Source: Escherichia coli
GTDB taxonomy: Bacteria > Pseudomonadota > Gammaproteobacteria > Enterobacterales > Enterobacteriaceae
Assembly (NCBI RefSeq): GCF_003790525.1
Contig: NZ_CP033635.1
Reading direction: 5' to 3' (one strand)
DNA: 64,000 nucleotides
The notes beneath the pieces are model-generated. The model saw only the letters and a program-made list of their open reading frames with translations. It was not told the DNA's origin and ran no database searches. Every line of letters starts with the position of its first letter. Positions within the stretch are counted from its first letter, which is position 1. The position numbers and the translations under genes were made by a program. Below, piece by piece: positions 2,752 through 33,739 of the stretch.

Positions 2752-3033
2752 TTATTGCGCTGGTGGCCATTGCAGGGCGGTATGTAAAACACGCAGTACC
2801 GAGAGCGTATCGCCCTCCACTTGGTAGATCAGCACATAATGCGGCCTGACAACGGCTTCATGTGTACCAGCGACTCGTCCGGCCCGGTACATCTCCGGGC
2901 GTTCACAGGCCTGTTCCGCAATGGCTTCAAATTGATTATCAAGGGCTATTGCCGCTAGCGGATTATCTTTACTGATGTATTCCATGATTTGCTCCCTGTC
3001 AGACAGGGACATTGGCTTCCATTCCAGACGCAT
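2752..3033 (-). CDS. Type II toxin, ParE/RelE superfamily (93 aa)
   Basis: MRLEWKPMSLSDREQIMEYISKDNPLAAIA...HYVLIYQVEGDTLSVLRVLHTALQWP has the length and conserved pattern of ParE/RelE toxins; its ATG overlaps the stop of the upstream ORF by 1 nt (TAATG). Confidence 0.8.
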   Translation of the reverse strand: MRLEWKPMSLSDREQIMEYISKDNPLAAIALDNQFEAIAEQACERPEMYRAGRVAGTHEAVVRPHYVLIYQVEGDTLSVLRVLHTALQWPPAQ

Positions 3034-3473
3034 TAATCCCCCTTCAGCAAGGCTTTTTTACGGGCAGCAAATAGACTTTTGGCCTCTTCATGAGAGAGCG
3101 CCGGGCGTGGATCGTCAATGGCGGCCTGTACCTGTTCACGAAACCAGGCGTCATACGCGGCAGCTTCATGAGCTCGTTTTAATGCCTCTGCCCTGTCTGG
3201 TCGGGTCGTTTTCTTCTGACCGTCCGGGTCGTAATGAGAGGCGTCGACTTCAAACCGGGCAATACCAACATCTTTCAGGTAGTTGACAACCGTTTCCAGC
3301 CGTTTAAACAAGCGAATTTGCCGACTGCGTTGTGCTGCAAGAGGCCGTTCAGTGTGGCCGTATTTCACGGTCAACGACCAGCCTCCCTGGGTGCCAATAA
3401 CGTGTGCTGCATCCACTACGCCAGATTCAACCAGTTTATGTAAGGTTGAGTGATCGATCGTTTCTGGTGCCAT
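3033..3473 (-). CDS. Putative cognate antitoxin (146 aa) with a ParD/PaaA2-like C-terminal tail and an unassigned N-terminal domain
   Basis: ATG start with AAGAGG ribosome-binding site 8 nt upstream; C-terminal ...YDAWFREQVQAAIDDPRPALSHEEAKSLFAARKKALLKGD resembles the W-x-R...DPRPA tail of ParD/PaaA2-type antitoxins (from memory); translationally coupled to the toxin. Confidence 0.65.
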   Translation of the reverse strand: MAPETIDHSTLHKLVESGVVDAAHVIGTQGGWSLTVKYGHTERPLAAQRSRQIRLFKRLETVVNYLKDVGIARFEVDASHYDPDGQKKTTRPDRAEALKRAHEAAAYDAWFREQVQAAIDDPRPALSHEEAKSLFAARKKALLKGD

Positions 3474-3629: not shown

Positions 3630-4994
3630 TTACTGCGCAGCGGCAGGTTTACGCGGACGGCGACGGCGTTGTTGTTCGCCTGCCGGTTTGGCATCACCAA
3701 GACGACGAGATGTTTTTTCTGCGGGCTTCGCGCTAGCTGATTTCGCACCACCTTCTCCACGGCGTGGTTGCTGTTGACCGCGACCACCACCTTGCCCACG
3801 ACCGCCGCCGCCACGTTGCTGGCGACCGTTCTGGATCGGTTCGGCTTTGATTGACGGGTCCGGCTCATAACCCGGAATCGCAATGCGCGGGATCTCTTTT
3901 TTCAGCAGTTTTTCGATATCACGCAGCAGTTTGTGTTCATCAACACACACCAGCGACAACGCTTCACCGGTAGCAGCCGCACGACCGGTACGCCCGATAC
4001 GGTGGACATAATCTTCCGGTACGTTTGGCAGTTCATAGTTGACCACGTGCGGCAGCTCTTCAATATCCAGGCCGCGCGCAGCGATGTCAGTTGCCACCAG
4101 TACACGAATATCGCCCGATTTAAAATCAGCCAGCGCACGGGTACGCGCACCTTGCGATTTATTGCCGTGGATCGCCGCACTGCGGATGCCATCTTTATTA
4201 AGCTGTTCAGCCAGATGGTTAGCGCCATGTTTGGTACGGGTAAACACCAGCACCTGCTGCCAGTTCCCTTTCCCAATCATATGCGACAGCAATTCGCGTT
4301 TGCGTTTCTTATCGACAAAGTGAACGTGCTGGGTCACCTGATCAGACGCAGTATTGCGGCGTGCCACTTCGATTTCCAGCGGGTTGTGCAACAGTTTTTC
4401 CGCCAGGGCTTTAATATCGTCAGAGAAGGTCGCGGAGAACAACAGGTTCTGGCGCTTCGCTGGCAGTTTTGTTAACACGCGACGGATATCGTGGATAAAG
4501 CCCATGTCGAGCATGCGGTCAGCTTCATCAAGGACGAGGATTTCAACCTGATCCAGCTTCACTGCATTTTGATGTTCCAGGTCCAGCAGACGTCCCGGCG
4601 TTGCCACCAGCACATCAACGCCGCCGCGCAACTTCATCATTTGTGGGTTAATGCTGACACCGCCAAACACCACCAGCGAACGAATGTTCAGGTATTTGCT
4701 GTAATCACGGACGTTTTCGCCAATCTGCGCCGCCAGTTCACGGGTCGGGGTAAGAATGAGCGCACGTACCGGACGACGCCCTTTGGCGTGCGGCTGGCGA
4801 GTGATCAGGTGTTGCAACAGCGGCAGCGTAAAGCCCGCTGTTTTGCCGGTGCCGGTCTGGGCGCTGGCCATCAGGTCGCGGCCTTCCAACACCGCAGGGA
4901 TCGCCTGCTGCTGAATAGGGGTGGGTTCACGGTAACCCTGCTCGGCAACGGCGCGCAGGATATCAGGGCTTAAACCCAAAGAATCGAAAGACAT
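3630..4994 (-). CDS. rhlE: ATP-dependent RNA helicase RhlE (DEAD-box, 454 aa)
   Basis: ORF track 454 aa, [33 protein letters not shown]..., Gly/Arg-rich C-terminus. Confidence 0.96.
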
Positions 4995-5187
4995 AACTAC
5001 TCCGAACCGCCCCGACCGTTACCGGTGTAGTTTTCAGGGAGATACTGAAAAGGAAAATGACAAAAACCACAATGTCATGAGGGAGCGGAGTGTAGCAGTT
5101 TTTGTGACGCAGCGCATAAATTATCCCTGCGACTGGCGTAGCTAAAATTCTTAGCCATACTGGACAACTCCCCTATGGAGTCATAAT

Positions 5188-5209
5188 CTTAATCAATCAT
5201 TTGATTAAG
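5188..5209. promoter_or_regulatory. Perfect 9-bp inverted repeat (CTTAATCAA-N4-TTGATTAAG), candidate TetR-type operator for CecR
   Basis: cttaatcaa tcat ttgattaag located 14 nt upstream of the cecR ATG. Confidence 0.45.
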
Positions 5210-5222
5210 AATGGACTGTGCG

Positions 5223-8613
<3,391 letters not shown>

Positions 8614-8621
<8 letters not shown>

Positions 8622-9747
8622 TCCGATCCTGTCCTGGCGTCGCGTGCGGGCACTGTGCGTCAAAGAGACGCGGCAGATCGTTCGCGATCCGAGTAGCTGG
8701 CTGATTGCGGTAGTGATCCCACTGCTACTGCTGTTTATTTTTGGATACGGCATTAACCTCGACTCCAGCAAGCTGCGGGTCGGGATATTGCTGGAACAGC
8801 GTAGCGAAGCGGCGCTGGATTTCACCCACACCATGACCGGTTCGCCCTACATCGACGCCACCATCAGCGATAACCGTCAGGAACTGATCGCCAAAATGCA
8901 GGCGGGGAAAATTCGCGGTCTGGTGGTTATTCCCGTGGATTTCGCCGAACAGATGGAGCGCGCCAGCGCCACCGCACCGATTCAGGTGATCACCGACGGC
9001 AGTGAGCCGAATACCGCTAACTTTGTGCAGGGGTATGTCGAAGGGATCTGGCAGATCTGGCAAATGCAGCGAGCGGAGGATAACGGGCAGACTTTTGAAC
9101 CGCTTATTGATGTACAAACCCGCTACTGGTTTAACCCGGCGGCGATTAGCCAGCACTTTATTATCCCCGGTGCGGTGACCATTATCATGACGGTCATCGG
9201 CGCGATTCTCACCTCGCTGGTGGTGGCGCGAGAATGGGAACGCGGCACCATGGAGGCTCTGCTCTCTACGGAGATTACCCGCACGGAACTGCTACTGTGT
9301 AAGCTGATCCCTTATTATTTTCTCGGGATGCTGGCGATGCTGCTGTGTATGCTGGTGTCAGTGTTTATTCTCGGCGTGCCGTATCGTGGGTCACTGCTGA
9401 TTCTGTTTTTTATCTCCAGCCTGTTTTTACTCAGTACCCTGGGGATGGGGCTGCTGATTTCCACGATTACCCGCAACCAGTTCAATGCCGCTCAGGTCGC
9501 TCTGAACGCGGCTTTTCTGCCGTCGATTATGCTTTCCGGCTTTATATTTCAGATAGACAGTATGCCCGCGGTGATCCGCGCGGTGACGTACATTATTCCC
9601 GCACGTTATTTCGTCAGCACCCTGCAAAGCCTGTTCCTCGCCGGGAATATTCCGGTGGTACTGGTGGTGAACGTGCTGTTTTTGATCGCTTCGGCGGTGA
9701 TGTTTATCGGCCTGACGTGGCTGAAAACCAAACGTCGGCTGGATTAG
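8614..9747 (+). CDS. ybhS: ABC-2 family permease YbhS (377 aa)
   Basis: [22 protein letters not shown]..., multi-TM; overlaps ybhF stop. Confidence 0.93.
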
Positions 9748-9757
9748 GGAGAAGAGC

Positions 9758-10864
9758 ATGTTTCATCGCTTATGGACGTTAATCCGCAAAGAGTTGCAGT
9801 CGCTGCTGCGCGAACCGCAAACCCGCGCAATTCTGATTTTACCCGTGCTGATTCAGGTGATCCTGTTCCCGTTCGCCGCCACGCTGGAAGTGACCAACGC
9901 CACCATCGCCATCTACGATGAAGATAACGGCGAGCATTCGGTGGAACTTACTCAACGTTTTGCCCGCGCCAGCGCCTTTACCCATGTGCTGCTGCTGAAA
10001 AGCCCGCAGGAGATCCGCCCGACCATCGACACACAAAAGGCGTTACTCCTGGTGCGTTTCCCGGCTGACTTCTCGCGCAAACTGGATACCTTCCAGACCG
10101 CGCCGTTACAGTTGATCCTAGACGGGCGTAACTCCAACAGTGCGCAAATTGCCGCCAACTACCTGCAACAGATCGTCAAAAATTATCAGCAGGAGCTGCT
10201 GGAAGGAAAACCGAAACCCAACAACAGCGAGCTGGTGGTACGCAACTGGTATAACCCGAATCTCGACTACAAATGGTTTGTGGTGCCGTCGCTGATCGCC
10301 ATGATCACCACTATCGGCGTAATGATCGTCACGTCACTTTCCGTCGCCCGCGAACGTGAACAAGGTACGCTCGATCAGTTACTGGTTTCGCCGCTCACCA
10401 CCTGGCAGATATTTATCGGCAAAGCCGTACCTGCGTTAATTGTCGCCACGTTTCAGGCCACCATTGTGCTGGCGATTGGTATCTGGGCGTATCAAATCCC
10501 CTTCGCCGGATCGCTGGCGCTGTTCTACTTTACGATGGTGATTTACGGTTTATCGCTGGTGGGATTCGGTCTGTTGATTTCATCACTCTGTTCAACACAA
10601 CAACAGGCGTTTATCGGCGTGTTTGTCTTTATGATGCCCGCCATTCTTCTTTCCGGTTACGTTTCGCCGGTGGAAAACATGCCAGTATGGCTGCAAAACC
10701 TGACGTGGATTAACCCTATTCGCCACTTTACGGACATTACCAAGCAGATTTATTTGAAGGATGCGAGTCTGGATATTGTGTGGAATAGTTTGTGGCCGCT
10801 ACTGGTGATAACGGCCACGACAGGGTCAGCGGCGTACGCGATGTTTAGACGCAAGGTGATGTAA
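9758..10864 (+). CDS. ybhR: ABC-2 family permease YbhR (368 aa)
   Basis: ORF track 368 aa, [23 protein letters not shown]..., paralogous to ybhS. Confidence 0.93.
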
Positions 10865-22280: not shown

Positions 22281-22584
22281 TTTCTCACCATAATATTTCT
22301 GTTACAGCGTAAACTCCGCTGTCAATCATGAGCAAAATTTACTCTGTGGCGAGATAAAACTCCGGCCTTACCGGGTTATCCCCAAAGCAACGGCTTTTTT
22401 AACATTTGTCAAGATGATTGATGACAGTTTTATGGCAAGAGATGCCTGTTCAGTGACTGCCATTGCAATTATCTAACCTGTTAAAAAATAAAAAATATTT
22501 CTTTGAGCCGTCTTTAACGCCAATTCGCGTGCAAGCCGCGTATTCTCTCGCTTGCCTCGTGTTTTCTAACTCTAATACACATGG

Positions 22585-22608
22585 TTATCCACAGGAATAG
22601 TGGATAAC
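22585..22608. promoter_or_regulatory. Pair of inverted DnaA-box-like 9-mers (TTATCCACA / GTGGATAAC) in the distal uvrB promoter region
   Basis: ttatccaca ggaata gtggataac. Confidence 0.45.
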
Positions 22609-33664: not shown

Positions 33665-33739
33665 TTAATATCCTGTTCTTTCTGTATGACTCATACAGAA
33701 TTCCTTTATTGATTGTCATTATCACGACAACAAAATTTT

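Follow-up and report, generated by a model that had tools for sequence, protein, structure and literature searches.

The perfect inverted repeat located directly upstream of cecR is very probably the operator of CecR. It lies in the window, the whole 64-kb stretch of Escherichia coli DNA that was analysed. The strain is SMS-3-5, as shown by an 801-bp query around the palindrome with 100% identity to NC_010498.1. The earlier note had put the palindrome forward as a candidate CecR operator in the position expected for autoregulation. This proposal is supported by a core that is shared across species and by the literature on the spacer in which it lies. A CecR operator at this place is already known; the finding is correct and ordinary, and brings no new biology. 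What is added to the CecR literature that was found is comparative, namely a conserved 20-bp core with the consensus TTAATCAATCGATTGATTAA across Enterobacteriaceae, a TCGA centre outside Escherichia, and persistence in a recognisable form to about 40% protein identity. A likely promoter architecture, in which the core abuts a conserved −10 element, is also added.

CecR controls YbhG and the ABC-type efflux system YbhFSR, which have an effect on sensitivity to cephalosporins and chloramphenicol. The CecR operator would be the switch for this conserved enterobacterial resistance determinant.

The palindrome and its genetic setting

Read directly from the window, positions 5188-5196 are CTTAATCAA, 5197-5200 are tcat and 5201-5209 are TTGATTAAG, which is an exact match to the palindrome with 9-bp arms and a tcat centre described in the earlier note. 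The repeat finder adds one more matching pair, so that the perfect arms, TCTTAATCAA and TTGATTAAGA, are each 10 nt long (Table 1). The core within this repeat reads TTAATCAATCATTTGATTAA in Escherichia and TTAATCAATCGATTGATTAA in other genera. It has an internal tandem structure, in which TT and two AATC units on one side of the dyad are followed by two GATT units and AA on the other, giving four AATC/GATT units. The half-site of the candidate operator is TTGATTAA, and both half-sites are found within 5180-5215. There are 13 nt between the end of the 9-nt arm and the ATG of cecR at 5223. Counted from the palindrome, the A of this ATG is base 14, which makes the distance of 14 nt originally given acceptable. 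The identical 24-bp sequence is present in E. coli K-12, with the distance to cecR unchanged.

Table 1. Coordinates of the palindrome, its surrounding genes and the predicted promoter elements, with mean information across the sampled species where calculated.
Feature	Position	Strand	Remarks
Full perfect inverted repeat, E. coli form	5187-5210	.	Arms 5187-5196 / 5201-5210 around tcat
Conserved 20-bp core of the candidate CecR operator	5189-5208	.	Defined by conservation and PWM; dyad between 5198 and 5199; 1.94 of 2 bits per position
Predicted cecR −35 hexamer, TGGACA	5161-5166	+	1.68 bits per position; 66/79 species
Predicted cecR −10 hexamer, CATAAT	5182-5187	+	1.64 bits per position
Promoter spacer (predicted)	5167-5181		0.58 bits per position
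ATG-proximal stretch	5210-5222		0.43 bits per position
Further upstream block	5129-5158		0.26 bits per position
Likely rhlE −10, GATAAT	5120-5125	-	Poor −35; read by eye
cecR (ybiH), TetR-family regulator gene	5223-5894	+	RefSeq
ybhG (hlyD-type adaptor; RefSeq hlyD), ybhF (ABC ATPase), ybhS and ybhR (ABC permeases)	5897-10864	+	RefSeq
rhlE, divergent DEAD-box helicase gene	3630-4994	-	RefSeq

The palindrome is situated within the 229-bp spacer that separates the divergent rhlE and cecR-ybhGFSR. It is the sole perfect repeat with closely spaced arms, and the sole operator-sized dyad, of this spacer. The other perfect repeats present have arms of 7-8 nt which are placed 7-52 nt apart. An operator of the TetR family is expected to be dyad-symmetric DNA of about 15-30 bp that adjoins the gene of a TetR-family regulator. 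The palindrome is of this form, and the identity of the adjoining gene is established by its domains, equivalog and PDB matches.

The product of cecR is a protein of 223 aa with two Pfam domains, TetR_N and CecR_C. It scores 417.7 bits (cutoff 365) with NF008587, the NCBIfam equivalog ‘transcriptional regulator CecR’, and matches the PDB entry 9i1x (E. coli CecR) with E=1.7e-147. A further match is to PDB 1t33, a deposit titled ‘putative transcriptional repressor (TetR/AcrR family)’. The description of a TetR-family gene at the head of cecR-ybhGFSR therefore holds, the identity of CecR being borne out by NF008587, 9i1x and RefSeq. The adjacent ybhG matches NCBIfam NF002939. The ATG at 5223 aligns with the cecR start in other genera. 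An in-frame ATG at 5211, which would add the four residues MDCA, was considered as the true start and ruled out, as it is found in Escherichia only.

On the far side of rhlE, between this gene and dinG, a toxin-antitoxin-like gene pair is located on the minus strand at 2752-3473. The toxin-like member is a 93-aa protein of the ParE/RelE family (PF05016), annotated in RefSeq as a RelE/StbE toxin. Its partner of 146 aa carries the PaaA2 ‘stability determinant’ domain (PF21217) and is a hypothetical protein in RefSeq.

Conservation and uniqueness of the core

Conservation was followed in one genome per species with a CecR alignment, giving 80 loci with a CecR identity of 73-100%. The genera covered include Escherichia, Citrobacter, Salmonella, Kluyvera, Klebsiella, Enterobacter, Raoultella, Kosakonia and Leclercia, among others. 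The core is kept in 79/79 loci having upstream DNA. Absence from orthologous promoters had been named beforehand as an outcome that would refute the operator, and the idea is not refuted. In 77 of the 79 loci, 10-14 nt separate the element from the point where the CecR match starts; in the two exceptions (L069 and L080) the tblastn match begins inside the gene, at residue 9 or 5.

Positions ±3 to ±10 from the dyad are invariant (n=79), apart from a single exception at ±7 and another at ±9. At the centre, G is present at +1 in 73 and A at +2 in 69 of the 79 loci, which results in the perfect 20-bp palindrome of the consensus. An A,T centre (TCAT) is a feature of all six Escherichia species sampled. 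One further Enterobacteriaceae locus (L036) also reads TCAT in its upstream sequence, although the count by position gives only six loci with A at +1; the tally of TCAT is accordingly six or seven loci. On comparison of these sequences, the TCAT centre of Escherichia is a derived, slightly asymmetric departure from the TCGA found elsewhere. The ±11 pair (C...G at 5188/5209) is symmetric in only 30/79 species, and the outer two pairs of the E. coli repeat are not conserved beyond Escherichia and Citrobacter. The conserved recognition unit thus appears to be the 20-bp core without the outer C/G pair. Free variation is seen across species in the 12 nt downstream of the core and in the promoter spacer.

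Among complete E. coli genomes, 5408/5423 (99.7%) carry the 32 nt of 5183-5214 with 100% identity. For a control 32-mer taken 55 nt further upstream (5128-5159), the figure is 34/5140 genomes (0.7%). In the single-mismatch E. coli variant that was inspected (Ec-U10), the change is at 5212, outside the palindrome.

The element is also unique. The palindrome pattern with up to 3 mismatches has 1 occurrence in the 64-kb window against 0.01 expected, and a PWM built from the orthologous sites scores 33.2 bits at the palindrome against 2.2 for the next-best match in the window. Neither the pattern nor the PWM search found further sites in the window, and there are no extra CecR half-sites in the rhlE/cecR spacer. 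Each of 5423 E. coli genomes has the sequence at a single place, a count equal to that of the whole 801-bp locus, with no second genomic copy at BLAST sensitivity. An inverted repeat belonging to a repetitive or mobile element (REP, IS end) was ruled out by this single copy per genome.

For more distant orthologues, the representatives of 50%-identity clusters were searched, and the genomic contexts of the orthologues obtained were then compared. Related cores are present in four of five more distant lineages, in which CecR identity is 40-59%. At 59% identity (L083), a 30-bp perfect palindrome, TAAACTTAATCAATCGATTGATTAAGTTTA, contains the same core and is located 11 nt before the ATG. The upstream element is TTAATCAtatGATTGATTAA at 49% identity (L085/L086), AAATCAAACGATTGATCAA at 43% (L090) and TTAATCAATCGATTGAcctA at 40% (L091). 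The exception is the AT-rich pair L087/L088 (46% identity, invariant HTH), which has no recognisable core upstream of cecR. At positions 3700-4000 of these loci, which retain the full rhlE-like/cecR/ybhGFSR synteny, only a half-like element, GATTGATGAA, is found, 136 nt before the ATG.

All distant orthologues compared have the HTH stretch ATTRxIA..GQNIAAIxYxF without variation, and the cecR-ybhGFSR gene order is the same in orthologues down to 40% CecR identity. The divergent DEAD helicase is retained in distant orthologues; at L090 a DabA gene lies upstream rather than rhlE, and the core is still present. This persistence with cecR in distant lineages, even where rhlE is not the neighbour, indicates that the operator tracks its regulator beyond the divergence seen within Enterobacteriaceae. 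The site is thus conserved together with the regulator and its DNA-reading helix, as expected of an operator, with the exception of L087/L088.

Predicted promoter and alternative explanations

The sequences TGGACA and CATAAT look like the −35 and −10 hexamers of cecR, as a prediction only. CATAAT or a one-off variant is present in most of the 79 species, and ends one base before the operator core. The resulting TGGACA-N15-CATAAT arrangement has a variable spacer of 15 nt. A consensus promoter scan called no cecR promoter, since it required spacers of 16-18 nt and the predicted one is short. The core probably covers the transcription start of cecR, which is predicted at about 5193-5196, inside the left arm.

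CecR bound to the core would occupy roughly −6 to +15, where steric repressors classically sit, and would block RNA polymerase at the cecR-ybhGFSR promoter. This block would lead to negative autoregulation and to repression of the efflux genes. Binding of a ligand (cephalosporins, chloramphenicol) in the C-terminal tunnel would release CecR from the DNA, and the operon would be de-repressed. We infer the steric occlusion and the ligand-induced release, as well as the assignment of the promoter and start. The same single site, whose dyad precedes the likely start and −10 element of rhlE by about 85 bp, may also account for the positive effect on rhlE. It had been suggested that the palindrome be looked for upstream of rhlE; no separate copy is found, and rhlE shares the single site.

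The rhlE-proximal half of the spacer, 4995-5125, is a separate observation. Its cross-genus conservation in Enterobacteriaceae almost equals that of coding DNA. Inverted repeats are present at 4995-5004/5023-5032, 5031-5037/5045-5051 and 5060-5067/5098-5105, and the stretch has no match to an Rfam family. An as yet uncharacterised 5′ leader of rhlE with a defined structure could lie here.

A role for the inverted repeat in RNA, as a hairpin in the cecR 5′ UTR that modulates translation or mRNA stability, is very unlikely. If the whole repeat is transcribed, the region 5180-5240 can fold into a 10-bp stem with an MFE of −14.7 kcal/mol (z = −2.6 relative to shuffled sequences), separated from the start codon by 12 nt and close to a weak Shine-Dalgarno region. 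However, this AT-rich stem contains 2 G-C pairs of 10 and has no Rfam match at E≤1, and a transcript from the predicted start in the left arm would be without most of that arm. The arms are invariant in sequence across the 79 species with no compensatory changes, and the symmetry ends abruptly at ±11, which argues for base-specific recognition by a protein and not for pairing. An intrinsic terminator was also ruled out, as the AT-rich stem is followed by no T-run and the terminator scan reports nothing here.

It is similarly hard to credit that the palindrome binds a regulator other than CecR, with CecR binding elsewhere in the spacer. Such a reading draws on the strong conservation of the rhlE-proximal part of the spacer, and on the fact that the match to the published footprint is made by elimination and not by coordinates. 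Against this, the palindrome travels with cecR even where DabA replaces rhlE upstream, the core is kept at L091, and no other dyad-symmetric element of operator size is present in the spacer. The conservation of the core parallels that of the invariant CecR HTH, and one site per genome fits a single SELEX target. The third alternative, a chance palindrome or the remnant of a mobile or repetitive element without function, is effectively refuted by the conservation data. For perfect palindromes whose arms reach 10 nt or more and whose spacer does not exceed 8 nt, the chance expectation from a first-order Markov simulation is about 0.9 per 64 kb, or roughly one in a stretch of this length, and about 0.003 in the 229-bp spacer. 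The size of the palindrome alone is therefore unremarkable, and the case for function rests on position and conservation. The core holds 1.94 bits per position among the 79 species against 0.26-0.58 in the flanks, and identity among E. coli genomes is near complete in comparison with the neighbouring control. With a single copy per genome, the site is not a member of a repeat family.

Relation to published CecR sites and other palindromes

Binding of CecR in the rhlE/cecR spacer has been reported by SELEX and gel shift (PMC12998191, PMC5934670, PMC6237786). A CecR recognition sequence was identified in the cecR-ybhGFSR/rhlE spacer, and reporter assays placed cecR-ybhGFSR under negative and rhlE under positive CecR control (Yamanaka 2016, via PMC12998191). 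CecR is described as a single-target regulator by genomic SELEX (PMC5934670), and the in vivo ChIP-exo pattern is consistent with SELEX (Gao 2018, PMC6237786). Binding of antibiotics to CecR has also been reported (PMC12998191, FEBS J 2025). The YbiH motif is given as a palindromic AT-rich inverted repeat ‘separated by 7 nt’, derived from several ChIP peaks (Gao 2018, PMC6237786). This separation of 7 nt has no obvious fit to the 4-nt or 0-nt centre seen here. A cecR/rhlE intergenic mutation is reported to have arisen in a CCCP evolution study.

The published CecR site is identified with this palindrome by elimination and with high confidence, because it is the sole operator-sized perfect palindrome and the sole PWM match in the spacer. 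The 2016 abstract by Yamanaka is said to describe DNase I footprinting and a single binding site that includes a complete palindrome. The site published for E. coli K-12 (Yamanaka 2016, Microbiology 162:1253; Gao 2018) shares its organism, spacer and regulator with the one described here, and there is probably no difference between them, both being the same element. The CecR box sequence is, as far as found, not printed in papers citing Yamanaka 2016. Full-text literature searches with the palindrome sequence and its half-sites returned nothing relevant.

Similar to classical TetR-family operators (TetR/tetO, AcrR/acrAB, QacR/IR1), the element is an AT-rich dyad adjoining the regulator gene, with a predicted overlap of promoter and start, a regulator with a TetR_N HTH and an efflux target. 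The tetO core is roughly 15 bp and QacR IR1 is 28 bp; the conserved 20-bp dyad of CecR is longer than the former and shorter than the latter. Another difference is the internal tandem AATC/GATT structure, which sets the CecR core apart from the classical operators. Activation of a divergent gene, as reported for CecR, is unusual for the TetR family.

The tandem units bring to mind a composite operator, bound in a QacR-like manner by two CecR dimers rather than one, which is conceivable from the sequence and rather doubtful. If it were true, the Escherichia change from TCGA to TCAT would break the inner unit on one side. In Escherichia, the TCAT centre might then tune how strongly CecR represses, or how repression of cecR is balanced against activation of rhlE. 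There is no CecR-DNA complex in the PDB. The 20-bp consensus, the likely promoter architecture and the derived form of the E. coli site could help in designing CecR-based biosensors or DNA for a co-crystal with CecR.

Other palindromes of the window are noted in their own right. In the bioD-uvrB intergenic region, the perfect palindrome GTTATCCACAGGAATAGTGGATAAC at 22584-22608 is formed by TTATCCACA, the DnaA-box consensus, in two inverted copies. A perfect 21-bp palindrome, TTCTGTATGACTCATACAGAA, is present at 33680-33700 between ybhH and ybhI, 16 nt upstream of ybhI. With the LysR-family gene ybhD close by, it is a candidate binding site for a regulator; the spacing in its CTG-N11-CAG exceeds that of a LexA box by one base. 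The longest palindrome of the window, at 60215-60252, has 16-nt arms arranged as TAAAAATTTATGGGCC-tgaagc-GGCCCATAAATTTTTA. With A/T runs on both sides, it resembles a bidirectional terminator.
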